A stretch of 64,000 nt of DNA from an uncultured Chloroflexia bacterium. GTDB lineage: Bacteria; Chloroflexota; Chloroflexia; Thermomicrobiales; UBA6265. The notes under the pieces were generated by a model. The model was not told where the DNA came from and searched no databases. It saw only the letters and a list, made by a program, of their open reading frames with translations. Numbering within the stretch: the stretch's first letter is position 1; every line of letters begins with the position of its first letter. The DNA lies in NCBI GenBank assembly GCA_963741965.1, contig CAVUKC010000001.1, forward strand, positions 179,008 through 243,007, written 5' to 3'. The position numbers and the translations under genes were made by a program. Shown here piece by piece: positions 3,964 to 62,619 of this stretch.

Positions 3964-5416
3964 CTATGGGGCTTCCATGATCTCCGGGCGGCGCTGCCAG
4001 GCGGGGTTGGCGTGCTCGAAGGCGAGCGACGCGCGCAGCAGCTCGACCTCGCCGAGCGGCCGGCCGACGAGCTGGATGCCGACTGGCAGGCCGTCCTCCG
4101 TGAAGCCGCACGGCAGGGAGATCGCGGGCAGGCCGGTCGCCGAGATGTACCAGCAGGAGCGCATCCAGCCGAGGTAGTCGTCCTGCTCCTCACCAGCGAC
4201 CTCCCGGGGCCACGTCCACTCGGCCGGGAACGGCGGAAGCTGCACGGTCGGTGTCGGCAAGGACGTCGATGCCGTCGAAGAGTTCGACCATGCGCTGATA
4301 GAGCCGGGTACGCGCGGTGAACGCCTCGTGGATGTCCGTGGCGGTGAGCTCGAGACCGGCTTCGACGTCTGTGCGGATGTTGTCGCTGAGCGAGTCGGGC
4401 TGTGTCCGGTAGAGCTCGCCGTAGCGCTGCGAGGCGCCCCAGAAGCGGAGCGTCCGAAATGCGAAGGCCGCGTCTTCGAAGTCCGGCTCGATGTCGCGGA
4501 CCTCGGCTCCCAATTCCTCGAGCGCCGGGCGGCCATCCCGCTCCAGCACCTCCGTCACCGCCGGGTCGACCGGCAGACCACCGAGCGTGCGGGACCAGCC
4601 GACCCGCACGCCGCGCAGACTCGTGGGTGGCGCGCTCTCGGCGATGGTGGCGAACGGGCTGCCGTCGCCGGGGAGGGAGTCCGGGTCACGCGGGTCGAAC
4701 CCGGCGAGGACCGACTGCAGCAGGGCGGTGTCGGCGACGGTGCGGCCCATCGCGCCGACGACCGAGTAGCCGACCCAGCCGGTCGCCACCGGCGCGCTCG
4801 AGTTGCGGCCGATGGCGGCGCGGAGGCCGACCACGTTGCAGAACGATGCCGGGTTGCGCAGCGACCCACCGGTGTCGCTGCCGTCGGCAAGGCTGAGCAT
4901 GCCGCTCGCAAGCGCGGCGGCCGCGCCACCGGAGGAGCCACCCGCGCTCCGGTCGGTGCCGTAGGGATTTCGGGTGACGCCGAAGAGCGGGTTGAAGGTG
5001 TGGGAGCCGGCGCCCATCTCCGGCACGTTGGTCTTGCCGAGGCGGATCGCGCCGGCCTCGACCATGCGCGCCACGGTCGCCACATCTTCGTCCGGAACAT
5101 TGTCCTTGTAGATGGGGCTGCCGTAGGTGGTGCGCATGCCCTTGGTCGCGCGGAGGTCCTTGTGGGCGACGACGAGGCCGTGCAGCGGGCCGAGCGACTC
5201 GCCCCGGGCGAGCGCGTCATCGGCGGCCTGCGCCTGTGCCATCGCGCCCTCAGCGTCCATCGTCACGATCGCGTTGACGACCGGGTTGACCTCGGCGATG
5301 CGGGCGAGATACGCCTGCAGGAGCTCGCGCGCGGAGATCGCGCGGCGTCGCAGGAGGTCGCGCTGCTCGATCGCGGGAAGGTAGCAGAGGTCCGTTGCGG
5401 TGGTGGGGATGGCCAC
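3964..5416 (-). pseudogene. Amidase (amidase-signature family), interrupted by a +1 frameshift near 4261
   Basis: ORF 4190..5416 carries GGSSGGAAAALA and ends in junk after FDGIDV. ORF 3964..4536 continues LPTPTVQLPPFP...ISLPCGF...VGIQLVG in the next frame. The span is 1453 nt (1 mod 3). Confidence 0.8.
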
Positions 5417-5511
5417 AGGGTGGTGCCGCCTTGTCGTGTGATGCGCCGGCCGGCGCGTCGGGTGGTGTACGCCGGCATTGTACCCGTGCGCCGCCTGCGC
5501 TCAACCTGCGG

Positions 5512-6747
5512 TCAGACGGCTCTCATGGCGACACAGGCGTTGATGCCGCCGAACCCGAAGGCGTTGCTGAGCAGATGCGTCACCTGCTGGTCGCGGCCGC
5601 CCGGCGGGATGACGTCGAGGTCGCACGCCGGGTCCTTGTCGATCAGGTTCGCATTGCCGGGCAGGTGCCCCCGCTGCATGGCGATCGCGCAGATCGCGAC
5701 CTCCATCGCGCCGGTCGCGCCGAGCGCGTGGCCATGGAGCCCCTTTGTGCCGCTCACCGGCACCTCGTCGGCGTGGTCGCCGAGCGCGATGCGGATCGCC
5801 TTGCACTCGGTCGGCTCGTTGAGCACGGTCGATGAGCCGTGGGCGTTAACGTACTCGATCTGGTCCGGTGCGAGGTTGGCGGCGCAGAGGGCGTCCTGCA
5901 TCGCCTTCGCGGCGCGGCTGCCGTCGGGGTGCGGCCGGGTCATGTGGTGACCGTCGCTGCTGGTGCCGTAGCCGGCGAGCTCGGCATAGATGCGGGCACC
6001 ACGCGACTGCGCGTGCTCGAACGACTCGAGAACCAGCACCGTGCCACCCTCGGCGATCACGAAGCCGTCACGCCCGGCATCGAAGGGGCGGCTGGCGGTT
6101 CCTGGATCATCGTTGCGGGTACTCAGCACGCGGATCATGGCGAAGGCGCCGAAGGTGAGCGGCGCGAGCGGCGCCTCCGCTCCGCCGGCGAGCATCACCG
6201 GCACGCGACCGTCCTCGATCAGGCGGGCGGCCTCCCCGATGGCGATCATGCCAGCGGCGCAGGAGTTGCCGTTGGCGATCGAGGGGCCGTTGAGGCCCAT
6301 CTCGATGGTGATGTTGGAGGACGCCGCGCCACCGAAGACGGAGAGCGCCAGCATCGGGTTGACCTTGCCGACGCCGCCGGTGACGTAGGCGTGGTGCTGT
6401 TCCTCGGCGAATGCGACGCCGCCCAGCGCGGAGCCCATGTAGACCCCGGCGCCGGCGCGGGCGGCGTCCTCAGGGGAGAGCGCCGCGTCTTCCAGCGCCA
6501 TTTGCGCTGAAACGAGGGCAAACTGCGAGAAGCGGTCAAGCCGGCGGGCACGCTTCGGCGCCATGTAATCGACGGGGTCGAAGTCGACCTCGGCGGCGAC
6601 CTGGCTGGGGAAGTCGGACGGGTCGAAGCGGGAGATGCGGCGCACGGCGGACTCGCCGCGGCGCACGCCGTCCCACAATCCCTCCACGCCGGTCCCGATC
6701 GGGGTGATGGTGCCGATGCCGGTGATGGCGACGCGTTGCTTGTTCAT
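5512..6747 (-). CDS. Beta-ketoacyl-ACP synthase II-like (KAS I/II family)
   Basis: Start MNKQRVAITGIGTITPIG at 6747. Active-site context NSCAAG, VNAHGSST, GLHGHALGATGA (Cys-His-His). The longer 510-aa ORF is an unsupported N-terminal extension. Confidence 0.85.
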   Translation of the reverse strand: MNKQRVAITGIGTITPIGTGVEGLWDGVRRGESAVRRISRFDPSDFPSQVAAEVDFDPVDYMAPKRARRLDRFSQFALVSAQMALEDAALSPEDAARAGAGVYMGSALGGVAFAEEQHHAYVTGGVGKVNPMLALSVFGGAASSNITIEMGLNGPSIANGNSCAAGMIAIGEAARLIEDGRVPVMLAGGAEAPLAPLTFGAFAMIRVLSTRNDDPGTASRPFDAGRDGFVIAEGGTVLVLESFEHAQSRGARIYAELAGYGTSSDGHHMTRPHPDGSRAAKAMQDALCAANLAPDQIEYVNAHGSSTVLNEPTECKAIRIALGDHADEVPVSGTKGLHGHALGATGAMEVAICAIAMQRGHLPGNANLIDKDPACDLDVIPPGGRDQQVTHLLSNAFGFGGINACVAMRAV

Positions 6748-7223
6748 CGTGGAATCCCGTCTGGTTGGAATCGCTGATCGCGATCCTCGACGATGCCCTT
6801 GATCGTGGTGAGTGTTCTGGTTGCGATCGCCTCGACGAACTGCGGTCCGATGATGCGGTCGGCGACGAAGCCGCCCACCACCGGCCAGGGCGGGTCGAAG
6901 TCGTGGTCGATGGTGACGTAGACGCCATCGGAGGTGGGATTGAACGTCCAGGCAACGTCCATCCCTTTCGTCACGCCGCCGATGTGGTGGAAGCGGATGA
7001 TCGGTGTCGGGCCGTCGCGTTCGACGTCCTGCCGTGCACGCCATTTGACCGGGATGACGTCACGCCGGGCGGCCATCTCGACCGCCTTGTGGTCACCGCC
7101 GCCCTCGAGCACGGTGACCCATCGGTAGTGGGGCAGGATCTCCGGCCATCGCTCTGTGGCGACGGCCAGCTCGACGATGTGCTCGAGCTCACCCTGCATC
7201 AGCACGGTGTTCGCCGTTTTCAT
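6744..7223 (-). CDS. SRPBCC (polyketide cyclase/dehydrase-like) family protein
   Basis: 159-aa ORF with an SRPBCC-like sequence pattern (WPEILPHYRWV...). Its stop overlaps the KAS start by 4 nt (ATGA). Confidence 0.6.
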   Translation of the reverse strand: MKTANTVLMQGELEHIVELAVATERWPEILPHYRWVTVLEGGGDHKAVEMAARRDVIPVKWRARQDVERDGPTPIIRFHHIGGVTKGMDVAWTFNPTSDGVYVTIDHDFDPPWPVVGGFVADRIIGPQFVEAIATRTLTTIKGIVEDRDQRFQPDGIPR

Positions 7224-7241
7224 GCTTCCTCCTTCTCGCCG

Positions 7242-8450
7242 TCAGGGACGCAGTAACCCGGCCAGGTAGATCGGCGATAGGGTCTGTGTGGCCGGTCGAA
7301 GGTTGCCGAGGACACCCGCGAGGGTGAGTCCGAGGTCGTCGCGCGCGGCGAGTCGATCGGTGACGTAGTTCATCAGCGGCGGGTGGTTGACGAACCCCTG
7401 CACGACCCAGCTCACCGCCCGCTTGGTCGTGAACTCACGTCGCCGAGCTCGCCGGTAGCCATCGAGGTCGCTCGCCGAAGTGTCGCCTGAGCGCAGGGCG
7501 GCGGAGACGACCGGGGCGGCGAGGAAGCCGCTGCGCAACGCCTGGTAGACCCCCTCGCCGACGAACGGGTCGAGGAACGATGCAGCGTCGCCGAGCAGCA
7601 GCCAGCCGTCGCCGGTGACCCGGCGGGCGCGACGGCCCATCGGCCCGACTCCGCGGATGCTGCCGACACGGTCGGCGCCGTCGAGCCGGCTGGCGATGCC
7701 GGGGAGTGAATCGACCGTGGCGGCGAAGTAGTTCTCCAGGGAGCCGGTCTTTGCTTTCACGGCATCTGTCGGGACGACGACGGTGAGATTGACGAGGCCC
7801 TGCTCGAGGATCGCGAGCCCGGCGTAGGCGCCGCGGCCGACGTGCATCTCGCCGGACCCGTCGAGACCGGTGACGCCACGGTAGTGGGCGGCGAGGCCGG
7901 TCTTGCGCGGCCATCGCCAGTTGAGATCGAGGCCGAGGGAGCGGGCGACTGCGGAGTCGTGGCCGTCCGCGCCGATCACGATCGGGGCGCGGAGGCTCTC
8001 GCGGCTGCCGTCGATGGTCGCCTCGATCCCGCTGACGCGGTCACCATCGCGGATGACGTCGCGCACATGCGCTCGCTCACATACCGTCGCGCCTGCTTGC
8101 CGGGCGCGGTCGAGGAGGATGTGGTCGAGCCGGTAGCGGGAGAGACCGATCGCCGCCGCGTCCGGCTCGACGCGCGCGAAGGCGGCGGTGAAGCGGCTTC
8201 CGTTCGGCGCCTGGACGACCATCGCGGGCATGCGCGACGCGCCAGCGGCCATCACGGCATCCAGTACGCCAAGCCGCTCGAGCAGGCGCTCGCTGGCGGG
8301 GCTGGCGTAGTCCGAGCAGGGCTTGTGTCGCGGGAAGCTGGCCTTGTCGAGCAGCAGCACGCTGTGCCCGGCGTCGGCGAGCAGCGTCGCCACGGTGCTG
8401 CCGGCTGGGCCGGCTCCGACGACAATCACGTCGGCGTCGCGCTCAGGCAT
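7242..8450 (-). CDS. FAD-dependent oxidoreductase, geranylgeranyl-reductase family
   Basis: N-terminal DVIVVGAGPAGSTVATLLADAGHSVLLLDK dinucleotide fold. Later GDAASFLDPFVGEGV motif typical of GGR-like flavoproteins. Confidence 0.75.
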   Translation of the reverse strand: MPERDADVIVVGAGPAGSTVATLLADAGHSVLLLDKASFPRHKPCSDYASPASERLLERLGVLDAVMAAGASRMPAMVVQAPNGSRFTAAFARVEPDAAAIGLSRYRLDHILLDRARQAGATVCERAHVRDVIRDGDRVSGIEATIDGSRESLRAPIVIGADGHDSAVARSLGLDLNWRWPRKTGLAAHYRGVTGLDGSGEMHVGRGAYAGLAILEQGLVNLTVVVPTDAVKAKTGSLENYFAATVDSLPGIASRLDGADRVGSIRGVGPMGRRARRVTGDGWLLLGDAASFLDPFVGEGVYQALRSGFLAAPVVSAALRSGDTSASDLDGYRRARRREFTTKRAVSWVVQGFVNHPPLMNYVTDRLAARDDLGLTLAGVLGNLRPATQTLSPIYLAGLLRP

Positions 8451-9207
8451 CGGCAGCTCCGCGAACCTTCACGGCGGCCATCCGAAACCACGGATGCGTG
8501 GAGATGCGGGCGCCGTCGATACCGGCGTGGCGCAGCAGCCGGTGGAGCTCGTCCGGCGTGTAGGCGCGCAGCACCGAGAGTGGCGCGTCGTTGCGGGTGA
8601 GCCGGTTGCGGGTGGTGAGGCGGGCAGCACCCCACGCGGCGGCGTAGCCGAGGTATCCACGGCGCAGGTCGTTGAGGATGAAGCCGTGGCGACCGAGACG
8701 GTCCATCTCACGCAGCACCCGCACGGCGTCGTCCGGATCAAAGTGGTGGAGCGAGAGCGCGCAGTGGACGATGTCGACGCTTCCGTCAGGCAAGGGCACA
8801 TTCCGCGCGTCATACTGCGCGAAGGTGATCTCCGGGTGGCCGTTGGTGTGGCGCCGTGCGAGGTCGAGGATGCCGGCATCGACGTCGCTGGCGATGATCT
8901 CGACCGATCGCCCGCGCCGTTGCGCCCAGTGCAGGGTCGCGAGCGGGATGTCGCCCGAGCCGGTGGCGAGGTCGAGGATTGTCACTGGCTGGCCAGGGGG
9001 AACGCTGTCCACCAGTGCGGGAAGGTGCCGGATCGTGGTGGAGACGCCGCCGAGGAGCCGGTTGACCCGGCGGATGTCCCGGAAGTTGGACGCCAGCTCT
9101 GCGGGATCGTCGATGGAACCGTCGAGCAGCTCCCGCTCCACCCGCCGGGGCGGTGGATGGAGGAACCGGGCTGGGAGTCTGGGGGCTGGCGCTCCAGTTC
9201 GAAACAT
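8443..9207 (-). CDS. Class I SAM-dependent methyltransferase
   Basis: Motif I ILDLATGSGD, then IASDVD and VHCALSLHHF. The stop overlaps the reductase start by 8 nt. Confidence 0.75.
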   Translation of the reverse strand: MFRTGAPAPRLPARFLHPPPRRVERELLDGSIDDPAELASNFRDIRRVNRLLGGVSTTIRHLPALVDSVPPGQPVTILDLATGSGDIPLATLHWAQRRGRSVEIIASDVDAGILDLARRHTNGHPEITFAQYDARNVPLPDGSVDIVHCALSLHHFDPDDAVRVLREMDRLGRHGFILNDLRRGYLGYAAAWGAARLTTRNRLTRNDAPLSVLRAYTPDELHRLLRHAGIDGARISTHPWFRMAAVKVRGAADA

Positions 9208-12166: not shown

Positions 12167-12168
12167 GG

Positions 12169-16272: not shown

Positions 16273-16647
16273 ATGTTTGACCCGAGGCGGTATCTTTCGC
16301 TGGCGGAACATGTGCTTGCCGCGAGTGAAGACGAGGCCGCTTGGCGATCGGCACTGAGTCGTGCCTACTATGCCGCGTTCCTTGTCGCTCGCGAGTATGT
16401 CGATGGGCGAGGAATCAAAGGGCGCGCCCGATCAGGACGACGCCTGGGCTCTCACGAGCGCGTAATCTTCTCTGTAGGCGCGATTCCTGACGAAATGTCG
16501 AGCACGATGCGGAATACGCTTTTCAGGTTGAAGCGGCTACGCACGAATGCCGATTATGACCTCGACTATGTCGACGCGCAGGAACATATCGGCGAGGCGC
16601 TGGAGGACGCCGAGCGAGTGATCGCCTGGATCGACGGTCTTGTGTAA
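16273..16647 (+). CDS. HEPN-domain protein (UPF0332-like), candidate toxin
   Basis: 124 aa. AYYAAFLVAREYV helix, RRLGSH (Rx4H) and C-terminal RLRTNADYD, as in UPF0332/HEPN proteins. Confidence 0.6.
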   Translation: MFDPRRYLSLAEHVLAASEDEAAWRSALSRAYYAAFLVAREYVDGRGIKGRARSGRRLGSHERVIFSVGAIPDEMSSTMRNTLFRLKRLRTNADYDLDYVDAQEHIGEALEDAERVIAWIDGLV

Positions 16648-16750: not shown

Positions 16751-18104
16751 TCAGGCGCTGGTCGGTGGTTGAAGCGTGCCGACCTCGTCGGCGAGCCATG
16801 GCTCGTCGGTGGCCGAGCGGGAACCCGCGGCGTTGATCCTCGCGCCCGGCGGCGGCAGGACCTCGCCGCGCAGCAACGGATCGTCCGTCTCCTCCATCCA
16901 TCGCAACAGCCGCGCGAGCAGGTCGTCGCGGATGTCGCGGTAATCCGCACGGTCGGCGACGTTCACGCGCTCGTGCGGGTCGTACACGGTGTCGTGGAGT
17001 GCGATTTCGGGGAGCTCGATGTCCTCGAGCCCTGCCTCCAGCAGCACGTCCCGGCTCGGGCTGTCGTCGATGTTGGCCAGCACCGGCGTGCGGCGATCGC
17101 CAAAGCGGCGGATCAGCGCGTACCTCTCCGTGCGGATCAGCCGCTGCGGCTCGTAGGCGGCGTGGTAGGTGACCTCCGCGAAAACCTCGTCGCGGGTCGA
17201 CGCGACCTCTCCGCTGATGAGTGGCAGCAGCGAATGACCTTGCAGCCAGGCCGGCCGCTCGATGCCGGCGAGCTCGCAGATGGTGGGGTAGAGGTCGAGC
17301 TGCGCGACCAGCGCGTCGCTGACCACGCCGCCCTCGAACCCGCCCGGTCCGCGCATGATCAGCAGCACGCCGACGCCGTGGTCGGTGAGGTTGCTCTTCA
17401 TCATCGGGAAGGCGATGCCGTGGTCGGTGGTGGCGATCACGAGCGTGTTGTCGGCAAGTCCCGAATCGTCGAGCGCGGCGAGGATCTCGCCGTAGGCGTC
17501 GTCGAGATCGGTCAGCATCTGCTGGTAGCCGGCCATATCCTGTCGAATACGCGGCGTGTCGGGCAGCGGCGCGGGCGGAGCGAGGTAGCGGCCGGCGTCG
17601 CCCAGGTGCTTCAGGGAAGGGCCGGTGCGTCTCGAAGAAGCCGGCGTCGAGGAAGAACGGCTGGCCCGGCTGTGACGCCGCCTCGCGAATCGTCGCGACC
17701 GATGCCTCGACTGTCTTCGGCGTCTTCTCGTACGCCTCGTCATGTACCTCGGTGTAACCCACCTCATGGGAGTCGCCGTCGGTTACGTGCTGCGCACCGG
17801 CAAGCACGGTGCGGTACCCGGCGTCGCGCAGGGTGGTGGCGAGGTGTTGGGAGGGATCGCGAAGGCGGAAGCCACGGTGGGCGAGACCCATCATGCCGCT
17901 CTGATGCGCCGACTGGCCGGTGAGCATGCTGGCGCGACTGGGCGAGCAGGTCGGCGCGCCGGAGTACGCGCGGCGGAAGAGGACGCCCTGCTCGGCCAGC
18001 CGCTGCAGGTTCGGGGAGTGCAGGCCGTGACCGTACGGCTGGATGTATCGCCCGGTGTCGTGCGAATGCAGGTAGAGGATGTTCGGTCGGGCGGTGTCGG
18101 GCAT
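16751..18104 (-). pseudogene. Sulfatase (formylglycine type), interrupted by a +1 frameshift near 17615
   Basis: N-terminal frame has NILYLHSHD and CSPSRASMLTG up to ETHRPF. The C-terminal frame continues LKHLGDAGRYLAPPAPLPDTP...TTDHG. The span is 1354 nt (1 mod 3). Confidence 0.8.
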
Positions 18105-20158: not shown

Positions 20159-21445
20159 ATGCCGCCTGAATCCCTCAGTCCCGCCGGAGACCTGCTCGCC
20201 GATTTCGCCACCGACCTGGACGAGGTGCGGTCGATTCTGGTGCCGGGCGGGAGCGCGGCGCTGCTCGACGAGCTGGCGATGCTTCATCCGGAGGCGACGA
20301 TTCACTGGTTGCCGGTTGACGCGCGCGAGCTGCCCGGCCCGACTGGCAACGTCGTGCTGCACGATGATCCGGCTCTGCCCGGTGTCAAGGCTGGCTCGGT
20401 TGACCTCGTGGCCATCGAGGTGACCGGTGACCGCGATCTCGCCCGAAGGTGGATCGCACTGGCGCGGGAGACGGTGCGGCCGGGTGGGGTGGTGCTGATT
20501 GCGGGGGCGAACGACGCCGGCATCCGTAGCGCAATCGGTGATGCGCGTGACGCGATCGGGCTCTCGGTCGTCGAGGACTTCCGCCGGCGGAGCCGGGTGG
20601 CGCACATCGCGATGCCTCCGGTGCTGCCCGCGCCGCCGGCGTGGGCGATGGAGCCCGGCATCGCCCCGGGCACGTGGGGCCATCTCACGGTGGCGGAGGC
20701 GGGCGCGGAGGACATCGTCTTCTCGACCGTGCCCGGTGTCTTCTCGGCAGACCGGCTGGATGACGGCACCGCGCTGCTGCTGGACCATCTCGACGTCCCG
20801 GACGGCGCCTCCGTGCTCGACGTCGGCTGTGGCGCCGGGGTGATAGGCGTCATCGCGGCCGTGCGGGGGGCCGGGTCGGTGACGATGACCGACGTCAGCC
20901 TGCTCGCGGTCGCGGCGGCGCGGCGAAATGCGTCGCTGGCCGACGCTCCGGTGGAGGTGCTTGCCGGGGATGTCTACGGCGCGGTGGAGGGGCGCCGGTT
21001 CGATCTGATCGTCAGCAACCCGCCGTTCCACCAGGGCAAGGTGGTGGACTACGACATGCCGCAGCGGCTCATCGCCGAGGCGGCGGAGCACCTGAACCCG
21101 GGCGGGCGGCTGGTGATCGTCGCCAATGCGTTCCTGCCGTACGACCGGCTGATGCGCGAGCACCTCGGCGAGGTCGATGTGGTCGCCAGGAACGCGGCAG
21201 TACCGCGTGCTGGCCGCGACGAGATGACCCCGGGGGTGATTGCGATTGCCGAAGGTCGCGATGCCGGTAGGCCCGGGCCTCCGTGCCCGGGCGCGACATC
21301 CTCGACAGTGAGTGATTCATTGCATCATCACTGCCTGCCATTTCGAGCCCCCCACCTATTCAACTCCGACCCTTCGGGCCGTCGCCCAGGGCGGGCTCGG
21401 GCAGGCCCGCCGGGCGGGCGGCGGACGATTGCGCCGGACATGTGA
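20159..21445 (+). CDS. rsmC: RsmC-like 16S rRNA (guanine-N2) methyltransferase; the C-terminus is probably frameshifted near 21197 (true stop likely 21227)
   Basis: VLDVGCGAGV and LIVSNPPFHQG motifs. After VVARNA the +1 frame reads QYRVLAATR-stop, matching E. coli ENGRFKVYRA. The annotated frame instead runs through repeat B. Confidence 0.7.
   Translation: MPPESLSPAGDLLADFATDLDEVRSILVPGGSAALLDELAMLHPEATIHWLPVDARELPGPTGNVVLHDDPALPGVKAGSVDLVAIEVTGDRDLARRWIALARETVRPGGVVLIAGANDAGIRSAIGDARDAIGLSVVEDFRRRSRVAHIAMPPVLPAPPAWAMEPGIAPGTWGHLTVAEAGAEDIVFSTVPGVFSADRLDDGTALLLDHLDVPDGASVLDVGCGAGVIGVIAAVRGAGSVTMTDVSLLAVAAARRNASLADAPVEVLAGDVYGAVEGRRFDLIVSNPPFHQGKVVDYDMPQRLIAEAAEHLNPGGRLVIVANAFLPYDRLMREHLGEVDVVARNAAVPRAGRDEMTPGVIAIAEGRDAGRPGPPCPGATSSTVSDSLHHHCLPFRAPHLFNSDPSGRRPGRARAGPPGGRRTIAPDM
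21266..21292. repeat. Repeat family B, copy 3
   Basis: ggtaggcccgggcctccgtgcccgggcg. Confidence 0.8.
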
Positions 21446-25113: not shown

Positions 25114-25795
25114 ATGGCGTCATGGCTCCGAGGACATGCCCGACACCAGCGCTTCCGGGACCGGATCGACGCCGGCGAGCAGCTCGCCGCCAGGCTGGTG
25201 CCGCGCGCGGACGGCACCGCGCTGGTGCTGGGACTGCCGCGCGGCGGCGTGCCGGTGGCGGCGGAGGTCGCGCGGGCCCTCAACGCCGAGCTGGACGTGC
25301 TGGTTGCGCGGAAGGTCGGCGCGCCGCGGACAGCCGGAGCTGGCGGTGGGCGCCGTCACCGCGGATGGTGGTGTCTACCTCGACACGCGGCTCATCGAGC
25401 AGCTCGGCATCTCGCCTGAGGTGCTGGAGGAACGGATTTCCCGGGAGCGGCAGGTCGCCGAGCAGCGCGAGCGGCGATTCCGCGGGGAGCGGCCATATCC
25501 GAAGCTCGAGCGGCGCACCGTGATCCTCGTTGACGACGGGCTCGCGACGGGCGCGACGATGCAGGCCGCCGTGCACGCGGTGCGCAAGCGCCATCCTCAC
25601 CGGCTGGTGGTGGCCGTGCCGGTCGGGTCGCGCTCAGCCGTCGATGCGATCGGGCGTGAGGTGGACGAGGTTATCTGCCTGGAGGTGCGCACTCGATTTC
25701 AGGCAGTTGGGCTGTACTACGAGGACTTCCGCCCCACCCCGGACGCCGAGGTGGAGGCGCTGCTGCGCCAGTTCCGGGGCTATTCGCCAGCCTGA
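25114..25795 (+). pseudogene. Phosphoribosyltransferase-domain protein, +1 frameshift near 25327
   Basis: Frame 1: [12 protein letters not shown]...[14 protein letters not shown]...VARKVGAP. Frame 2 continues [11 protein letters not shown]...VILVDDGLATGATM. The span is 682 nt (1 mod 3). Confidence 0.8.
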
Positions 25796-26295
25796 CGCCA
25801 CGCGAGCGGCGGGCCACCCTCACCGGTGACCGGGTTGGTGTGCGGCAGTGGGACCGCGGCGATGCGCTCGTCCGCGCCCGGCCGATCGGCGGCGTCGCCG
25901 CGGAGGATGTCCGGCTGCTGGCCCGGTGGGTACGCGCCGATCACCAGCAGATCCCTGGATTGTCCCTGGTTGCAGTGCGAGGTGCCCGCCGGCAGCAGCA
26001 CGATGTCGCCGGCGTAGAGCTCGACGGAGGTTCCCTTCGGACCGCCGAGCAGGACATCGACGCTGCCCCGGGCGACGCCGAGCACCTCGTGGGCGGTGGA
26101 GTGGAAGTGGTTGAAGGTGAAGATGCCGTTTCGCCACACGCTGGTCCAGCCATTGGCTCGGAAGCAGAGCTCGATCGCGGTGTCGAAGTCGTCGTCGGTG
26201 AGCACCGCGCCCCGCCATAGCAGCACCGGGAGGCGGCTGTTCGGGAAGGTGCCGTCGTCTTCGAGATGGATCAGCGCAGGCGAGATGTCGGACAT
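25780..26295 (-). CDS. Cupin-domain protein (YjlB-like)
   Basis: 171 aa from MSDISPAL. FHSTAHEVLGVARG ... GDIVLLPAGTSH is a cupin motif pair. Confidence 0.65.
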   Translation of the reverse strand: MSDISPALIHLEDDGTFPNSRLPVLLWRGAVLTDDDFDTAIELCFRANGWTSVWRNGIFTFNHFHSTAHEVLGVARGSVDVLLGGPKGTSVELYAGDIVLLPAGTSHCNQGQSRDLLVIGAYPPGQQPDILRGDAADRPGADERIAAVPLPHTNPVTGEGGPPLAWRQAGE

Positions 26296-33649: not shown

Positions 33650-35204
33650 CTATGCGGTGCGGAGATCCCCGACGGCCTTGGCGCGGATGCGGGTGGCGTT
33701 GCCGGGCAGGTAGGCGAGGGGGATATCCTCGACGTCGACGATCTCGACCGTCTCCGGGTCGGCGCCGGCGGTGATAGCCCGCTCGGTCGCCTCGGCCTTC
33801 GCCTGCGCCACCGCCTCGTCGCGCGTCATCTCCGCCATCGAGAAGACGCGGTCGACCTCGCCGCTGATCTGCGCGATCGCCGCGCCGACGGCGTTGGCAG
33901 CCGCGTAGTGGTCCGGCTTGACCAGCTCACCGACGCCATCCACTTCGGTCACGAGGATCGAGCCACCGCCGACGACGATCAGGTCGACATCGCCGGCCTG
34001 CGTCTTCATGCGGTCGACCCCGGCCGAGATCATCTCCCGGATGCGCGTCGCGGCGGCGTCGACGGTCTCCGGGTCGAAGCGCGACACGCGGCACTGCTCG
34101 CCGATGTCGGCCCAGCCGGCGGCTCACGGCAATGTCCGTCGCGGTGAGCGTGTCCCCGCCGAACACCCATGCCTCCCGCGTGATCCGGTGCCCGACGCTT
34201 TGCGGCCCGACGAGCACGGCGTCGTCATCGTCGACCGTCACGATCGAGCCGCCGCCGAGGCCGAAGGAGTAGACATCCGGCATGCGGAAGTTGGTGCGCA
34301 CGCCGCCGATGTCCACCGCCAGCGAGGAGCGGCGGGGGAAGCCGTCGACGAGCACGCCGAGGTCGCTGGTGGTGCCGCCGACGTCGAGCACGAGCGCGTT
34401 CTGACGACCGGAGAGGAAGGCGGCGCCGCGCACGGAGTTGGACGGACCAGAGGCGAAGGTGAGCACCGGGAAGTGCTCGGCGAAGTCCGCGGTCATGAGC
34501 GTGCCGTCGTTCTGCGTCAGGTAGAGCGGGGCCTCGATACCCATGCCGGCGATCGCGTCCCTGAACGCGGCGACGGTCTTTCGGGCGAGCGGGCGCAGCG
34601 CGGCGTTGAGGATGGCGGCGTTCTCCCGCTCCAGCAGGCCGAGCTGACCGACCTCGTGCGAGCGGGTGATCGACGCGCCAGGCAGCAGGTCGGCAAGAAT
34701 GTTCGCGGCGCGGTCCTCCATCGCCGGATTCACCGGCGCGAAGGCCGCAGAGATGGCGACGTCGGCGATGCCCGCCGCCCGGATCGCCTCGGCGACGTTC
34801 TTCAATTCCTCCGGAACGAGGGGATGGATCTCGCGGCCGTCGAACTCGTTGCCGCCGTGGACCATGAACGTGTGGTTGCCGACGGCGTCGCGGATGTCGG
34901 CGGGCCAATCCATCATCGGCGGGATCGACTCCGACGCGGGCAGCGCGAGACGGACGATCGCCGTCTGTGCGAGGTGGCGGCGCTCGATCACGGCGTTGGT
35001 GAAGTGCGTGGTGCCGATCATCACGCCGGCGATGTCGGCAGGCGTGACGCCGCCGGTCTCGAGGATGGTCGAGACGGCGGTGACGATGCCAGTGGTGACA
35101 TCGTCGGTCGTCGGGGTCTTGCAGGTGGCGTGCACGGTGCGCCCGTGCATGAGGGCGGCGTCCGTGTTGGTCCCGCCGACGTCGATTCCGATCCGCATCG
35201 TCAC
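33650..35204 (-). pseudogene. Hydantoinase/oxoprolinase (HyuA-type) family protein, +1 frameshift near 34121-34124
   Basis: MRIGIDVGGTNTD and LDVGGTTSD ATPase motifs run up to TATDIAV. The next frame continues AGWADIGEQCRVSRFDPETV...VVGGGS. The span is 1555 nt (1 mod 3). Confidence 0.8.
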
Positions 35205-36342: not shown

Positions 36343-36610
36343 GCATGTTTGCTGATGCCTGAAGATACCGAAGCTGATCCTGCTTATCGAAGAGTGCATG
36401 CAGGCGGGAGCGTGATTCGGACTCGGACAGATCGCCGCGGGTGAATTCGGCCATCACCAGTTCTGCGGTGTCGAAGATGTCCTGCTCCTCGTCCGCAAGC
36501 ACGCGTTCGAGCTGATCGGCATGCTCGGACAGGAAGTTCCAAAGCTGACTGGCGGTGATGATGCCTGCGTCGAAGCGATTCAGATGTGAGAAGAGGTCTC
36601 GGGCATCCAT
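36326..36610 (-). CDS. Hypothetical protein (94 aa), low GC
   Basis: GGAG RBS 7 nt upstream of the ATG. The 3' end overlaps the ANT-like gene start by 17 nt. No recognisable domain. Confidence 0.4.
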   Translation of the reverse strand: MDARDLFSHLNRFDAGIITASQLWNFLSEHADQLERVLADEEQDIFDTAELVMAEFTRGDLSESESRSRLHALFDKQDQLRYLQASANMHARAG

Positions 36611-44602: not shown

Positions 44603-47600
44603 ATGCTATCGCTGCCAGCACGTTCGACCCTTTCAATTGGAGGCCGGCATCACGCGCGGGGTGTGTCGGGAGCCGGCTGGTGGATCCACCTGCTCGGAGC
44701 GATCGCCCTGGTGATGGGCCTGTTGTTGCCGCTGACGGACGCCGGGCAGACGCTCGCGGCCCCGATGGGGCCAGGGACGGACGCGCCCCGGTACCAGTCC
44801 GCCAGCGACACCGTGCCGGCGGCACCGGTACAGGTGGCGGCGGTCGGCGACTTTCAGGAGGCGCTCGGCTGCGCCGCGTTCGACCCTTCCTGCCAGACGA
44901 CCCAGCTGACCAACAACGGCGGCATCTGGACCGGCGTGTTCGCGATTCCTGCGGGAACCTACCAGTGGCAGATTCAGGCGGTCGCGCCGGACGGCACCGT
45001 CTCCACCTACGGCCAGGGCGGCCTCGGTGGCGGCGCGCAGCAGCTGAGTGTCGGCGATGGCGATGCCGGTGCGTTCTTCTCCCTCGACACCCATACCAAC
45101 GACGCCGCCGCGCAGGCGGTCCCCGCGCTGTACTCGGTGAACGTCGATGGCGCCGCCGCGGCGCTCCAGCCGGAGGGCGGCCAGTACACCGCGCTCATCA
45201 CCTCTCAGGGCGGGCAGGCGAGTGCGCAGGTCTATGCCGGCGCTGACCCGGTCGGTGGCCCGCAGCCGGTGCAGCTGAACCCGGGCGCGAACCGGCTCAC
45301 CTTCGATGCGAACGGCCAGCTGGTCAACGTGGAGCCGCTGGCGAGCGGATCGCTCACGGTGGAGCGCCTTGATGCGAGCGGTGCGCCGCTCTCCGGTGGC
45401 TGCTATCAAATCCGCAGCGGCAACAGCATCGTCAATCAGGGCTGTGACGCCGATGACGGCGCCGACGGCTACACCAGCATGAGCTTCCCCGAGGGGATGC
45501 CGAGCGGCAGCGTCACGGTGGTCGAGGTCACGCCGCCCTCCGGTGCTGAGCCGGTCGAGAGCCAGGATGCCCAGCTGCAGGCGGGCGACAACGTCGTGAC
45601 GCTTCAGCCGGCAGCGGCCGAGGCCACGGAGACGCCCGCGGGTGGGCAGGTGATCGAGGGCGGTGGCGAGACGCCTGCCGCGACCGAAACCGCGGCCACC
45701 CAGAGCGAGCCAGGCGATCTGCTCGTCTATCTTGTGGACCAGAATGGCGCGCCGGTCGGCCGGAGCCTGCTTCGCGCTCCTGCGCGACGGCAACCTCGCC
45801 GAGGAGAGCTGCGACACCGAGCAGTACGACTCGGCGGAGTTCGCCAACAACGGCACCACCGGCTTCTTCGGCGTGCCGAGCGGGACGTACACGCTGCGCC
45901 TGACGCAAGCGCCGGGCGGCGGATCGGCCGACGACCGCCAGGTCGAGGTGCTTGCCGGTCAGCAGGTCGACGAGACCGTGACCATTCAGGTCGCCGCGCC
46001 GACGGAAGCTGCGACCGAGACGCCGGTGCCAACGGAGGCGCCGACGCAGACGCCCGAGCCGCAACCGGCCAACCTCACGGTGCAGACGCTCGACCAGAAC
46101 GCTCAGCCAGTACCGGGGGCCTGCTACCAGCTCATCCAGGACGGCACGACCGTCGCGGAGAGCTGTGACACGGAGAACTACGAGTCGGCGGACTTCGCGA
46201 ACAACGGCAACACCGGATTCTTCGGCGTGCCGAGCGGCACCTACACCCTGCGCATGACCGACGGCCCGGACAATGTCACCCTGGCGAGTGACCAACAGGT
46301 CGACATCGCGCCGGGCAGCGACGACACCGTGACGGTCAATGTTCAGGCCGCCCAGCCGACCGAGACTCCGGTGCCGACGCAGGCGCCGACGGAGACGCCG
46401 GTTCCCACCGAGACCCCCGTCCCAACTGAAACCGCTGTTCCCACGGAGACGCCAGCGCCGCCGGGCACGCTGACCATCCAGCTGCTCGATCAGGGTGGCA
46501 ACCCGATCGGCGGCGCCTGCTGGCAGTTGCTTGACGCCAACGGCGCGGTGGTGCAGGAGAGCTGTGACACCACGGATCAGGAGTCGGCCGAGTTCGCCAA
46601 CAACGGCAACACGGGCTTCTTCGATGTCCCCGCCGGGTCCTACACGCTCCATCTCGTCTCCGCGCCGCAGGGCGCGACCGCAGAGGATCGCAGCGTCGAT
46701 GTCACTCCTGGTGGCGACGACACCGTGCAGGTTTCGGTGACCGTTGCCCAGCCGACGGAAACGCCGGCCCCGACGCAGGCACCCACCGAGACCCCCGTGC
46801 CGACTGAAACGGCCGTTCCGACCGGGACGGCGGCTCCAACCGAGACCCCGACCGAGGAAGCCGCCCCCGGCGACCTCACGGTCGAGCTGCTCGACGCCAG
46901 CCAGCAGCGGGTCGGCGGCGCATGCTTCGTCCTGCTGCAGGACGGCAACCAGGTCGCGGAGAGCTGCGACGACGCGCCGTATGACACCGGCGAGTTTGTG
47001 AAGAACGGGCTCACCGGGTTCTTCGGGGTGCCGTCTGGCACCTACACGCTGCGCCTGACGTCCGCGCCGAACGGCCTGACCGCCGATGACCAGCAGGTCG
47101 AGGTCGTCGCTGGCACCGACACGCCGGTGACGGTCAACGCGACCGGTGGGGTGACGCCCACGGCGACGGCGACCACCGCGCCGACCGAAGCCCCGACGGT
47201 CACAGCCACAACCGAGCCGACGAGCGCGCCGACCGATGAGGCGCAGGGGCCGCAACCGGGTCCTGAGGCCAACCTGATCGTCACACTGCAGGACGCCAAC
47301 GGCAGCCCGATCGGTGGCGCCTGCTTCCAGATCGAGATGAAGGGCCAGCCGCCCATCGAGCGGTGCGATGCCGACGACCCGCTGCCCGGCAACGGCAACT
47401 CCGGCTTCTTCAACGTGCCGAGCGGGCAGTACACCCTCACCGAGACGACGGTGCCCGCGGGCACCAACCCGATCGAGCCGCGGGAGATCACGATCCAGCC
47501 AGGCGACAACCCGAACCTCGTCGTGAACCCGGCGCAGCAGGGGCTTGCTCCGAGTGGAACCCAGACGCCCACGAGCGGCGCGGGCAATGTCCTGATCGAC

Positions 47601-50600
47601 ACCACCGCGATCGGCGAGGGGCTCTGTGTCGAGCTCAACACCACCGGTGCGATCGCCTTCGTGGAGCCGCCGGCGGCCTGTGACAACGGTGACGGCGACC
47701 TCAACGACCAGCCTGGCCTGATCGAGATCGCCAACGTGCCGCCCGGCGACTACACCCTCACCGTTACCAGCGGTGCCGAGGGGATCCCGGACGTGACTGT
47801 GACCGTGTCGGAGACCGGCCAGGTGACGGTGCAGCTGGGCGAGGCCGCCACGGCGACCGCAGCGCCCACGGAGACGCCGGTTCCGACAGAGACGCCCACT
47901 GCGACCGCGACCGCCACGCTGGCACCGACGGAGACGCCGGTTCCCACCGAAACGCCGGTGCCGACCAACACGCCAGAGCCGACGGCGACGTCGACACCCG
48001 CGCCGACCACCGGCACCATCACGGTCACCGTGGTGGACAGCGAAGGCGCGCTCGGCGGTGCCTGCGTCGACATCACCAACCCGTCCGGCGGGCCGTACAC
48101 CTTCTGCGACGATGACGGTGACGGCACGATCGAGGTTCCGGACGCCGTGTTCGGCACCCAGACGATCAGCATGTCCACGGTTCCGGAGGGCTACGCCACC
48201 CCGGCCGATCAGCAGGTGGAGCTCTCGACCGACCAGCAGAGCGTGAGCGTCGAGTTCCAGCTCTCACTCGCCAACGGCACGATCCGCGTCGTCAGCGAGA
48301 CCGCCGACGGCACCGATCTGCCCGGCGCCTGCGTCGCGGTCGATGACGGCGACCCGGTGTGTGACACCGACGGTGACGGCGTGCTGATCTTCGAGCAGGT
48401 CCCGGCTGGCGACCACACCGTCGCGCAGACCACGCCGCCCGAGGGGTACCAGCCGGTCGACCCGCAGACGGCGACCGTCGTTGCCGGTGAGACCGTCGAG
48501 GTGCGGTTCACGAACGCGCCGGCGACCGGCTCCCTGGTCGCGACGGTGCTAAACGCGGACGGCGATCCGGTCGAGGGCATCTGCGTCGACATCAGCGCCG
48601 AGGGAGGCGAGCCGCAGACGCTCTGCGAGCAGGGTGACGGCGGCACCTTCAGCTTCGACAATGTCGCGCCGGGGACGTACAGCGTCTCGGTGAGCCAGGT
48701 GCCGCAGGCGTACGTCACGCCGGATCCCGTCAGTGTCGACGTCACCGCCGGCCAGGAGGCCACGGTCCAGATCGAGCTGGCCGCGGCCCCGCCGCAGACG
48801 GGCAGCGCGCTGCTGACGTTGCTCAGCGAAGACGGCCAGGCGGCCGCCGGAGTCTGCATCGGCCTGGTGAATCAGGACAGCGGCGAACAGCTCGGCCCGT
48901 TCTGCGACAACGGCGAGGGCGACAACGACGCCACTGAGGGCGTGCTGCTGGTGCAGGACATCCCGGTCGGCACCTACGAGGTCGTCTTCCCGGACGCGAA
49001 CAGCTTCACGACGACCGGCGCGGCGCTGCTGCGGATGCAGGACACCGCCGAGCCGATCATCATCGAGATCACGGCGGGAGAGACGACCGAGATGGACGTC
49101 GTCGTGCCTGGCCTGCTGGTGCTCGGCGGTATCGAGATGACCACTGTCGACGCCGCGACCGGCGACCCCGTGGCGGGCGCCTGCTACACGATCAGCACCT
49201 CCGAGCCGACCGTCGTCTGCGACGGCGGTGACGGCGACGAGTCCGCCGACGACGGCACCGTGCTGGTGACCGGGCTCGCGCAGGGCGATTACACCGTCAG
49301 CATGAGCACGCCGCCCGATGGCTACACCGCCGCAGCCGACCAGACCGCGACCGTGACCGGCGGTGGCACGGCGTCGCTCCGGTACGAGGTCACGGCAGAG
49401 GTCACGACCGGCACGCTGACCGTCACAAAGGTCGACGGCGCAGGCGATGCCCTGTCGGGTACCTGCTTCCGCCTCGAGAACGGCGGCGGCTCGGTTGCCC
49501 AGGTCTGCGACGATGATGACGGCGCCGACGACGGCACGCTCGTGTTCAGCGACGTCCCGGCGGGCACCTACACGCTCGTCGAAACGCGGACGCCGGGCAG
49601 CCAGTACCAGGCCGCGCCGAACCGCACGGTCGAGATCGGCGCTGGCGAGGACGTCGCCATCGAGGTGACCAACACCGCCGCGCCGGGCCGGCTCTACGTG
49701 GTGAAGGTCGACAGCGCCGACCCATCGACGCGACTCGAGGACGCCTGCTTCCGCCTCGACGGGAGCGCGACCTACGGTCCGTTCTGCGACGGCGACGACC
49801 TCAACGTTGACGGCCGCACGGTGTTCAGCAACGTCGCGCCGGGCACCTACACGCTGGTGGAGACCCAGGCGCCGGCCGGCTACGATGCCGCCGATGACCG
49901 CGAGGTCACCATCAACCCCGGCGTCACCCTGCAGATCACGGTGCAGGACGAAAAGACCCCGCCGCCGCCGGAGGCCGGCACGCTGGTGGTGCACAAGCTG
50001 GACGAGAACAACGAGGCGCTCGCCGGCGGCTGCTTCCGCCTGTTCGACGGCGACACGCCGGTAAGCGGCCAGGTGTGCGACATCACCGACGGCACCAACG
50101 ACGCGACGATCACGTTCGAGAACGTCCCGGTCGGCACGTGGACCCTGCGCGAGACGCTGGCGCCGTCGCCGAGCTACCAGCTCGCGCCGGACCAGAATGT
50201 GACGATCGAGAACGGCAAGACGACCGAGGTCAACGTCACCGACCAGCTCAAGCGAGGTCGCATTCTCGTCAAGAAGGTGACGCCGCAGGGCAAGGCGGTC
50301 ACGGGCGCCTGCTTCGAGCTCTCGCCGGACCAGGGTGACCCGCTCTGCTCCGACGCCAACGGGCAGATTCTGTTCGAGGACGTGCCGGTCGGCAGCTACA
50401 CGCTCACCGAGACGACCGTGCCGTACGGATACAAGAAGGCGGACCCGGTCGAGGACATCACCGTCAACCCGGGCCAGACCACCGTGGTGACGGTGGAGAA
50501 CGAAAGCCAGCCGCCACCCAACACCGGCTCGGTGCAGGTGCTCAAGTTCGTCTGCCCGGTCAGCACGGCCGATGAGGAGCACACGAGCTTCCTCGGCGGC

Positions 50601-51818
50601 GCGGCGGGCAACGCCGAGCTGTCGCAGACCAAGGGCTGCGCGCCGGCGAACGCCGAGTTCACGCTCGTCGGGCAGGACGGCGCGGACGGACCGGGCGCGT
50701 TCAGCACCGGCAACGACGGCCAGTACCAGGTGACGCTGCCGGCGAAGGTCTACCGGCTCGACGAGACCGATCCGGACCTGCCGGGCAACTCGGCGGCACT
50801 GCTGCGCGTCGAGGTCGGCAAGCTGACGACGGTGGTGGTGATCAACTACGTGGCGCCGCCGGCACCGGAACCGGTCAACATCCACGTCGCCAAGTACACC
50901 TGCCAGGCGGGGTTCAACGGCACGACATACGAGGACTTCGCGGCGAGCTGCATGAGCGACTCGCAGCTGACCAACAACATCACCGTGCGAGCCGAGGGTC
51001 CGGTTGACCTCAAGGCCATCACCGGTGACGGTGGCAAGACCGGCCGCACGGTCTTCGCCAACCAGCCCGCGGGCACGTACACGATCTACGAGGAGCGGCC
51101 GTACAACATCCCGACGAACTACGGGTTCTGTGGGTGGAACGGCAACTGGCCGGCGGACTTCAAGACCGTGAACGGCGCGATCACCGCCAAGCTCGGTCAG
51201 GGAGACGACTTCAGCTGCGTCTTCTTCAACATCCCCGAGCCGGTGACCGACTCGACCGGCGTGATCCTGGTGCGGAAGTACGTCTGCGACGTCGACGCGC
51301 CGCCGAAGGGGTACAAGTTCGCCGACGAGTGCAGGCTCAGCGACCAGAACGCGTCGTTCGACCTGAAGCAGTTCAACGAGGAGCTGCAGAACTACCCGGA
51401 GCAGGGCACGCGGCAAACGGCGAACCCGGATGGCTTCGTGCGATTCATCAACCTGCGGCCTGGCAGCTACCAGCTACGGGAGGTGGACGCGAACTGGTGC
51501 TACGCCAACTCCAACAGCGTCAACACCAAGGGCGACGTGGTCGTGAAGGCTGGACAGGTCTCGCTGGTGTCCATCTACAACTGCGTCGGCACGTCGCAGC
51601 CGCCCAACACCGGCAGCGGTGACGCGGCTGGGCTGCTCAACCCGTCAGAGCCGGCAGCGCCGGCTCCTGGGGCGGGCAACGGCGCAATCGGCGTGACGCC
51701 GGGCATCGCCTGGCCGCTGGCCATCATCGGCGCGGTGCTGCTCGCGTTGCGATCGCGGAAGGTACTGGCGCCGGGGTACGACTGGTCGAAGGCGGAGGAC
51801 GACCGGGACGCCGCCTGA
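44603..51818 (+). pseudogene. Giant cell-surface protein (about 2400 aa) with about 19 tandem prealbumin/SpaA(Cna-B)-like domains; split by a +1 frameshift near 45761
   Basis: ggagga RBS and signal/TM segment WWIHLLGAIALVMGLLLPL. Pullulanase-associated-like AAVGDFQEALGCAAFDPSCQ module. Repeating G.L.V..LD....P..GACF.L......C......F..VP.G.YTL.E units. C-terminal TM plus RSRK. ORFs 44483..46168 and 45663..51818 join as QNGAPVG|GACFALL. The span is 7216 nt (1 mod 3). Confidence 0.8.
45993..48014 (+). repeat. Five Thr/Pro-rich linker-coding tracts inside the giant gene (PTETPV, about 18-nt periodicity)
   Basis: Linkers at about 45993-46070, 46347-46463, 46746-46868, 47145-47270 and 47841-48014. 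Domains 2-6 between them are near-duplicates (FANNGNTGFFGVPSGTYTLR). Confidence 0.8.
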
Positions 51819-58784: not shown

Positions 58785-58870
58785 GGTGCGGATCTCCTGA
58801 AATGATGTCTGCGAATCGGTGGCCCGACGCTTGAGGCGGGGACCCATCACCGTTGACGGGCCCCTCGCTG

Positions 58871-59570: not shown

Positions 59571-62500
59571 TCAGGCGATGTGGTGCTCGATCGCGAAGCG
59601 GGTCGCCTCGGTGCGGGAGCGGACGTCGAGCTTGTTGTAGATCGATCGCAGGTGCTGCCCGACAGTGCGCGGGCTGATCGAGAGCACGCGGGCGACCTCG
59701 GCGTCGGTCATGCCCTGGGCGACGAGCCGTAGCACCTCCGCCTCGCGCTGGGTGAGTCCCGCGGGCAGCCGATCTTCCGTCGTGGCGTCGCCACCGGGCG
59801 CGACAAGCTCGCTGGCGCGCTCCACCAAACGGGCGGCCCCGAGCGTGGTCGCGATCTCCACCGCCTCCTGCGCCATGGTGCTTGCCATCGCGTGATCGGA
59901 TTCCCTGTAGAGGATCGCCAGCTCAGTGAGCGAGAGCGCTCGCTCGTGCGGGATGGCGCAGGTCGTCGCGAGATCGAGTGCCGCCGCGAGGTCGCGTTTG
60001 GCGCCGGGGAGGTCAGTGCCCTGGTCGCGCAGAAGGGCTCCGCGGAGCCTGAGCGCATCGATCAGCGCGAGTGGCTGCCGTGGGGATGAGGCGAATGTGA
60101 CGGCGGCGCTGGCATGTTCGATCGCATCCTCCACGTGCCCATGGATCGCGAGCAGGCGGGCTTCGGCGAGCGCATGACCGGCGCGGCCGAGCACGCTGCC
60201 ACTCCACTCCAGCCAGCGGGCGCTGCCCGCAAGCCAGCGTTCGGCAGCGTCCAGATCGCCAGCGTCGATGCAGAGGCGGACGGCGAGCTGCTGGAGCATG
60301 AGTCCGTCGAGCAGCACGGCCGCGCCGGGGGCGGCGTCCGGGCCATCCGAGAGCAGGCCGCGGATATGCCGCCACGCCTCGGCGGTGTCCCCGCTGAGGT
60401 ACGCCATCGGCGCGAGCGCGTGCGTGACCTGCCGACGGATCAGATACGCGCCGGGGTCGGTGCAGGCGGCGGCCACCGTTGCGGCCGCCTGCCATGCGCC
60501 GTCGAGGAAATCAACTGTGATCCGGGCGACCTCGGGTACCGCCTGGGTTGTGAGCGCGCCGCGAGCCCGTTCGATCTCGATTCCGGCTGCGTCGGCGATG
60601 GCGCGGCGGGCGGCGGGGTCGTCGGCATGGTACGGCAGCACCACGTCGGTGAGCTCGTCCAGCAGCACGAAGGCGAGACAGGCGTGGTGGTCGATCGCGG
60701 TGTAGGCCTCGCGGGCGGCATGGAACGCCTCCGTGGCGCCATCCGGGTCGCCCTGCGACGCCAGCGCGATGCCGAGGCCGAACCGGGCGTGGCCGGTGTT
60801 GGCGATCGACAACGGGCCGATCTCCGCGCCGGACGTGACTGCCTGGTAGGTCTCGGCCACCGCAACGGCCTCGTCGAGGCGGCCGCTCGCTGCCAGAAAC
60901 CACGCGAGGCTCATGTGCCGGTTCGCATCGATCGCAACGAGTCGCTCTTCAGTGGCTCCCGGGTGGTTCACCGACCACTGCTCGAGCGTCGGCAGGGCAT
61001 CCGCCATCCAGTCGGCCGTGGTCCACGAGATGTACGTCTCGCGGGCGGGCAGCGCGCGCAGGACGTCGACGCCCGCGATAATCATCGGGATGCCGCGGGC
61101 CCAGTCGTCGGCGAAACAGTGCACGAGCCCTTGCGAGTAGCGCGCGTCGGCGGCGAGGACGTGATCCCCAGCCTCCGCCGCGATCTCCGCAGCCGCGCGG
61201 AGGCACCGGAGCGCGTCCGCCGCATCGGTGTAGCGCTGCAGGCGCCCGCATCGGTAGAGGAGACGCGCCCGGGCGATCGCCTGGCCGGGAACGCCGTCGA
61301 GGAGATCCGCGGCGGCGGCGAAAGCGATCCCGCGCCGTGAGCCACGCGTAGGCGCGTTGCGCCCGCTCGCCAGCTCGGACCAGCCAGTCCGGCGCGCGGA
61401 CATCACCGGCCTGCTGGTAGTGCCAGGCGATGATGTCCGGGTCCTGGCGCGGCCCCTGTTCGAGCGCCTCCGCGACGCGGCGGTGCAGCTCCCGACGTCG
61501 GTGGAGCGGGATCGCGGCGTATAGCGCCTCCCTGGTCAGCGCATGCGTGAAATAGATCACCCGGCCGTCCGGTGAGGCGCCGCAGAGGTGCCACTCGATC
61601 GCCTCGTCGATCGCTCGCAGGGTTGCGTCCTCGGTCGTATCGGTGAGTGACGCGAGCAGTGCGATCGGCACTTCATCGCCGATCACGGACGCGACGGTGA
61701 GCGGCTCGCGGACCGCGTCGCCGAGGCGGCTCACGCGGGCGTCGATCACCTGCCGGATCATCGGCGGGACATGCAGACCGTCGATGGAGCCCAGCGACCA
61801 TTCATCGCCGGTGCGGACGAGGCCGTCGTCACCGCGCTCCTCCAGGGCGCGCAGCAGCTCCATGGTGAAGAACGGGTTGCCTTCGGCGTGGAGCGCGAGG
61901 TAGGCGACGAGCCTGTCGCGGTCATCGTCCGGCAGCGCGTAGTGCATGCCTGCCAGTGTCGCGAGGTCGTCGATGCCAAGTCGCCGGAGGTCGAGCCGGA
62001 GCCCCTCGGACTCGCGGACAAGCGCCGGCAGCCGCTGGTAGAAGGGGTTCTGCCGGGTGAGCTCGTCCTCGCGGTAGGTCGCCAGCAGGAGGAGTGGCAG
62101 GTGGTCGATGCGCGTGGCGACATGCCGAAGCAGCTCGAGGCTGGCCGGGTCGGCCCAGTGGACATCCTCCAGCACGATCACCGTCGGGTGAGCGGTGGCG
62201 ATGGCGCGCAGGAACGCCGTCACATCGGCGAAGAAGGCGGACTGGCTGGTGACGGCATCGAGCGTCCGGTTCGCCAGCACGTCGGGCAGCGGCGGGAGAT
62301 CGGCGGCGTCGGGAAGGTAGCGGTAGCGGTCGGCGAGGTCGAGCCAGAGGCCGTACGGCGGCGCGGCGGACATGTCGTAGCAGTGTCCGACCGCGACGAC
62401 GCAGCCCTGCGCACGCGCCTGGCGGGCGAGATCCCGCGCGAGGGTGGTCTTGCCGATGCCGGCTTCCCCGCCAAGGATGATGAGGTTGCCGCGGCCCGCC

Positions 62501-62619
62501 TCCGCCGCACGAAGCTGCTCGCTGAGCAGGACACGCTCCGCCGTCCGTCCGACGATCGGCGGCGGTGAACCCCTGGTGCCAGGAGAAATCCGGATCTGGC
62601 TCGCCATCTGCCTGCCCAT
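59571..62619 (-). pseudogene. LuxR-family large ATP-binding (LAL/MalT-like) transcriptional regulator, +1 frameshift near 61332
   Basis: N-terminal frame has Walker A GGEAGIGKTTL and VLEDVHWAD up to RAYAWLTA. The C-terminal frame continues GIAFAAAADLL through TPR-like repeats to the LuxR HTH LTQREAEVLRLVAQGMTDAEVA. The span is 3049 nt (1 mod 3). Confidence 0.8.

Follow-up and report, generated by a model that had tools for sequence, protein, structure and literature searches.

Seven genes within one stretch of bacterial DNA can each be read as a full-length, recognisable protein only when a single base is skipped. Do such breaks record a genuine loss of gene function, an unusual mode of decoding, or a fault in the assembled sequence? 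This question is raised by a window of 64,000 nucleotides (nt), C1:179008-243007, in the genome of an uncultured bacterium (assembly GCA_963741965.1). The genome has 3.38 Mb, 66% GC and two contigs, of which C1 (CAVUKC010000001.1, 0.956 Mb), carrying the window, is the smaller and C2 is the main chromosome; it is placed in the Thermomicrobiales from the names that public sources give to its closest homologs. An initial annotation, made from the letters of the window alone, had claimed that the seven genes are each split by one extra base, and had preferred insertion-biased sequencing or polishing error to independent pseudogenisation; as checks it had named TBLASTN with intact orthologs and the genome-wide ratio of +1 to -1 breaks. 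Our analyses indicate that the seven breaks are very probably assembly consensus errors, surplus bases originating from long-read assembly or polishing, and not mutations, pseudogenisation or recoding.

Seven window genes are each split by a single surplus base

The junctions were placed by aligning the proteins of intact relatives to the window with tblastn. All seven could be located in this way, within 0-15 nt of the positions first proposed, and each gene was found to be split by one surplus base, with start-to-stop spans of 1453, 1354, 1069, 682, 1555, 7216 and 3049 nt that are all 1 mod 3. In the sulfatase, the RsmC-like methyltransferase, the phosphoribosyltransferase (PRT) and the giant surface protein, four window bases occupy the place of a single codon in the relative without costing any residue, which identifies the lesion at these sites as a +1 insertion rather than a -2 deletion. 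The sulfatase gene (16751-18104, minus strand) carries its surplus base at 17600-17603: residues 6-167 of a 454-amino-acid (aa) relative from the same genus end at 17604 and residues 169-433 start at 17599, and the Pfam Sulfatase profile is matched over 1-179 and then over 200-301 plus SGSH_C. The open frames of its relatives are intact, at 451-473 aa. The RsmC-like 16S rRNA methyltransferase gene (20159-21227, plus strand) is broken at 21188-21191, about 10 codons ahead of its true stop; the open reading frame (ORF) as it stands runs on to 428 aa, the relatives of 351-356 aa cover only about 80% of it, and their conserved C-terminal TRQYRVLAA is found in the other frame from 21192. In the PRT gene (25114-25795, plus strand; surplus base at 25327-25330), residues 1-71 of an intact 231-aa ortholog (L033) end at 25326 and residues 73-221 start at 25331. 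The gene of the giant surface protein (44603-51818, plus strand; 2384 aa), in which Pfam recognises a pullulanase-type X25 domain and about 12 SpaA-type/prealbumin-like domains, has its surplus base at 45758-45761, residues 1-387 of an intact 2373-aa ortholog (L035) ending at 45757 and residues 389-2373 starting at 45762. A single syntenic contig, assembled from short reads of a relative (NODE_229, 78.8 kb; L029, L033 and L035), carries both the PRT and the giant-protein orthologs intact. The giant surface protein is kept at 60-65% identity and with partial synteny (L035:11902-19023) in a relative that was recovered from several independent samples.

At the other three junctions the two alignments meet end to end or share 2-5 nt, as would also be compatible with a +1 insertion. 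In the amidase gene (3964-5416, minus strand; surplus base at 4256-4260), the Pfam Amidase profile is matched over 1-372 in one frame and over 374-445 in the other, and three relatives (L002, L004 and L005) change frame at 4256-4260. The hydantoinase/oxoprolinase gene (33650-35204, minus strand) is broken at 34121-34124; residues 2-359 of its relatives (513-517 aa, 85-87% identical) reach 34122, and residues 359-513 follow from 34123. The LAL-type regulator gene (59571-62619, minus strand) has its surplus base at 61320-61323 in the local context TTTC, with the Pfam domain AAA_16 in the N-terminal piece and TPR plus GerE (LuxR helix-turn-helix) in the C-terminal piece, and five relatives of about 1000 aa change frame at 61321/61322.

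These seven genes are accessory in function (an amidase, a sulfatase, a hydantoinase, an adhesin-like protein and a regulator among them), which would suit a reading in which some or all of them are real pseudogenes of recent origin on an accessory replicon, inactivated by +1 lesions on top of assembly errors elsewhere. The state of the broken halves argues against it. Identity to relatives is nearly the same on either side of the break in the hydantoinase (87 and 85%), the amidase (76 and 76%), PRT (75 and 72%) and the giant protein (65 and 60%), GC content at third codon positions stays at 0.86-0.94 in the broken pieces, and neither a second lesion nor a loss of codon bias was seen in them. 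Breaks shared with close relatives would have spoken for pseudogenes, as the initial annotation had pointed out; none was shared at any of the seven sites, every relative examined being intact, but a weak test is all that relatives merely 61-87% identical provide.

Frame breaks are genome-wide and biased toward insertions

Frame breaks were surveyed across the whole genome with a Viterbi caller of genes and frameshifts that is based on codon-usage log-odds, permits ordinary 1- and 4-nt gene overlaps, and has explicit skip-1 (fs1; insertion-type, an extra base) and skip-2 (fs2; deletion-type, a missing base) transitions. Calls were taken as high-confidence when the coding flank measured 150 nt or more on both sides and the stop of the upstream frame lay 60 nt or more away. 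Run without prior sites, the caller recovered all seven window breaks as skip-1 within about 15 nt (the amidase break, for example, at 4246). Genome-wide it made 367 skip-1 and 162 skip-2 calls, of which 163 and 43, respectively, passed the filter (206 in total, on both contigs), so the ratio of +1 to -1 breaks sought by the initial annotation is 163 to 43. In the homology-validated window the filter had a precision of 5/5 and a recall of 5/7. When indels were planted, 95.5% of insertions and 90% of deletions were detected, and 77.5% and 60%, respectively, survived the filter. Since the two types were detected at similar rates, the insertion bias is not made by the method, and the skip-1 excess remained after correction for sensitivity (binomial p = 1e-11).

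As a control, the caller was applied with iterative retraining to 400 kb of a finished, 99%-complete relative, where it gave 1-5 filtered calls per 400 kb compared with 21-24 here, a rate about 4-20 times higher in the present genome. Corrected for sensitivity and baseline, insertion-type breaks in genes are estimated at about 170-210 and deletion-type ones at 60-75, or approximately one break per 13 kb. The bias toward insertions is thus about 3-4:1 genome-wide, roughly one break in four being deletion-type. Given this insertion share, seven insertions out of seven in one window have a probability of about 0.13-0.19 and are unremarkable. The earlier argument for a systematic cause is supported by the genome-wide bias, which is not absolute.

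A high-confidence break was present in 6.6% of genes of at least 300 nt. Marker-gene completeness of the two-contig assembly is 94.1%, with an estimated contamination of 0.39%, and the proportion of broken genes matches the 5.9% completeness shortfall of this otherwise closed-looking assembly. The breaks are also clustered locally, with a variance-to-mean ratio of 1.7-1.8 in 20-kb bins and with 3-4 breaks in some genes; these clusters probably mark patches of poor consensus. Loci with 3-4 breaks of mixed type per gene within 1-3 kb are C2:2422321-2423725, C2:56713-60193 and C1:477662-482453. Local clustering would also fit a mixed or mis-binned population, whose consensus is a chimera of co-existing strains and whose indels come from collapsed strain variants instead of read error, all the more as the genome itself is probably metagenome-assembled, the related genomes in the collection being metagenome-assembled genomes (MAGs) of tens to hundreds of contigs each. 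We consider this very improbable: the variants left by strain collapse are mainly substitutions and larger indels, which would not account for single-base insertions being in 3:1 excess, and the contamination estimate is low. Such a population would in any case also yield an artefact, with the same practical conclusion.

Essential single-copy genes are among those broken

With the break skipped, several broken genes give read-through products that match NCBIfam equivalog profiles over almost their full length. These include ArgS (arginine-tRNA ligase), PNPase, AcnA (aconitase), SucA (the E1 component of 2-oxoglutarate dehydrogenase), PriA, IspG, a biotin carboxylase subunit and HemC-HemD. By tblastn, argS, pnp, acnA, sucA, priA and ispG are each present once, divided over two frames, and no second copy of any of the six was found in this genome. 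The argS break lies near C2:15,604 and that of ispG near C1:649,498. We know of no free-living bacterium that can do without ArgS, nor of any organism using the methylerythritol phosphate (MEP) pathway that can do without IspG. The breaks strike without regard to gene function.

The sole copy of ispG, an essential MEP-pathway gene, lies at C1:648539-649685 on the smaller contig. Because the only ispG copy is there, this replicon is a second chromosome or chromid and not a dispensable plasmid.

These genes bear directly on the possibility of real pseudogenes in the window. In its favour, insertion-type breaks are 1.4-fold denser on the smaller replicon (6.2 per 100 kb, against 4.3 on the main one; p = 0.017). 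Against it, single-copy ispG is broken on that same replicon, and argS, pnp, acnA, sucA and priA are broken on the main chromosome. As natural single-base indels tend to be deletions and to fall in longer runs, natural mutation also fits neither the direction nor the context of the indels seen here. The window genes do resemble the true pseudogenes of genome-reducing bacteria in that homology remains recognisable to either side of the frameshift in the ORF; they differ from them in that essential single-copy genes are struck alongside, further decay and shared breaks are missing, and the bias is opposite to the usual deletional one. Taken together, pseudogenisation of some or all of the seven genes appears unlikely.

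Sequence context gives no sign of recoding

All seven mapped sites lie in runs of 2-3 nt, six of them GG, CC or GGG and that of the LAL regulator TTT, which bears out the initial remark that most sites are in short G/C runs, with the regulator as the exception and with runs of this short length only. Among random coding 4-mers as background, 54% contain a doubled base and 44% GG or CC. Judging from the letters at the sites, the surplus base looks like a duplication of its neighbour. Long homopolymers were not enriched, the maximum run length near the 163 filtered insertion-type sites being that of the random background. No 3-6-nt k-mer within 21 nt of these sites was significant after multiple-test correction, whether as a shared motif, a slippery site or a methylation-type k-mer, and no motif was common to most of them.

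These data address the idea that the breaks are real and are decoded by recoding (programmed +1 frameshifting, transcriptional slippage or quadruplet decoding), the full-length protein still being made. That all seven breaks are +1 and that read-through yields full-length conserved proteins would be expected under this idea, and restoration of a full protein by a +1 shift recalls programmed +1 frameshifting of the prfB type in bacteria and its genome-wide use in Euplotes. Unlike those systems, the breaks have no conserved shift site, no stop at the shift and no conservation in orthologs, which read straight through at every site; moreover, about a quarter of the breaks in the genome go the other way. 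At the seven window sites the stop of the upstream frame lies 54-918 nt beyond the caller site, and the shift is therefore not at a stop codon. ARAGORN predicted 52 tRNAs, all ordinary ones with 3-base anticodons, and no tRNA with a four-base anticodon. The initial annotation had thought programmed frameshifting at seven sites unlikely, and the present data go the same way: recoding of any of the kinds named is exceedingly improbable, and programmed frameshifting or quadruplet decoding is effectively excluded. It is just as hard to credit that the surplus bases are real and that the lineage simply tolerates hundreds of +1 lesions, including those in argS and ispG, for this would require a motif-independent restoration of frame at the level of the RNA or the ribosome.

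Among the tRNA genes, a tRNA for selenocysteine (tRNA-SeC) is located at C2:296015-296112, and in-frame TGA codons of selenoproteins in this genome could pass for breaks in stop-based scans. Two long predictions with A34 anticodons, tRNA-Thr(agt) of 94 nt (C2:1267627-1267720) and tRNA-Gly(acc) of 89 nt (C2:1740363-1740451), may be false positives, intron-bearing genes or indel-damaged genes.

Consensus error as the most probable explanation

Assembly or polishing would have left single surplus bases in the consensus, with a bias of about 3:1 toward insertions. Such errors would be spread over both replicons irrespective of gene function, with the window sampling seven of them, and patches of poor consensus would yield the local clusters. 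The platform was presumably a long-read one, to which the two contigs of this assembly point when set beside the tens to hundreds of contigs of its relatives, and the reads would be expected to lack support for the surplus bases. Indels that fragment genes are what long-read assemblies, and MAGs built from long reads at low coverage, typically suffer from (PMC12007338, PMC9262707). The present breaks resemble the long-read (nanopore or PacBio) indel errors of bacterial and MAG assemblies, which are measured by IDEEL-type tests and removed by polishing, in that conserved genes are cut into two adjacent ORFs (PMC12007338; PMC9262707), and also in that they are genome-wide, strike essential genes, affect several percent of genes and accompany high contiguity but lowered marker completeness. 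The preference of the initial annotation for systematic, insertion-biased error over independent pseudogenisation is thus borne out by the excess of insertion-type breaks across the genome, the essential genes struck and the intact relatives. Shown directly are the breaks themselves, their positions, their number and direction across the genome, and their presence in essential single-copy genes; that they are artefacts we infer strongly, with direct proof at no single site.

Several observations weigh against consensus error or fail to add to it. In the nanopore assemblies tabulated in PMC12007338, homopolymer deletions mostly outnumber insertions; here, unlike there, insertions prevail by about 3:1, the window sites are in 2-3-nt runs (six of seven in G/C) and long homopolymers are not enriched. 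The insertion-dominated profile is thus atypical beside published nanopore profiles. Given the modestly greater density of breaks on the smaller replicon, a few accessory genes may be real pseudogenes. In a search of 5.8 billion proteins the nearest relatives of the window proteins were 61-87% identical; no protein of the same species was found in that collection, and nothing closer than 87%. Between the two rRNA operons, 4 substitutions and no indels were counted in 5.4 kb, a length over which less than one error is expected, so that this comparison is uninformative. Two near-identical 1.2-kb repeats that align with a 1-nt gap proved to be intact EF-Tu genes (C2:753943-755146 and C2:454433-455635), 99.75% identical, with ATG and GTG starts and with homology that stops at the start codon; this pair is uninformative as an error control as well.

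Other caller hits and neighbouring genes in the window

The caller made seven further hits in the window, every one of which was removed by the high-confidence filter. Five of them were checked by family search or ortholog alignment, leaving out those at 16645 and 29404, and no further real frame break was found among these five: the hits at 6757 and 8466 fall where two different neighbouring genes meet, that at 25823 lies within an intact cupin gene, and those at 36379 and 54767 are spurious N-terminal extensions. The hit at 16645 is a 196-nt call that fails the filter, as does the hit at 29404, which is 41 nt from the end of its gene and is spanned by one open ParB-like frame.

The cupin gene (25789-26295, minus strand) is convergent with the PRT gene, which ends at 25795 on the plus strand, and the two overlap by 7 nt (25789-25795). 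On the minus strand at 5512-9207, a beta-ketoacyl synthase (N- and C-terminal ketoacyl synthase domains), a polyketide cyclase/dehydrase (SRPBCC), a flavin adenine dinucleotide (FAD)-dependent monooxygenase and an S-adenosylmethionine (SAM) methyltransferase stand in a row. This run of genes on the smaller replicon resembles part of a tailoring cluster for an aromatic (type II-like) polyketide.

Implications

The biological value of the seven breaks is near nil, and their value is practical. The insertion-dominated, non-homopolymer profile may help to identify the particular assembly or polishing pipeline. About 7% of the genes are mis-split in a genome that seems to represent its species in the collection searched. 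Gene calls, pseudogene counts, completeness estimates and reconstructions of the MEP pathway, the tricarboxylic acid cycle and tRNA charging are distorted as a result, and other frame-break findings in this genome are to be discounted likewise.

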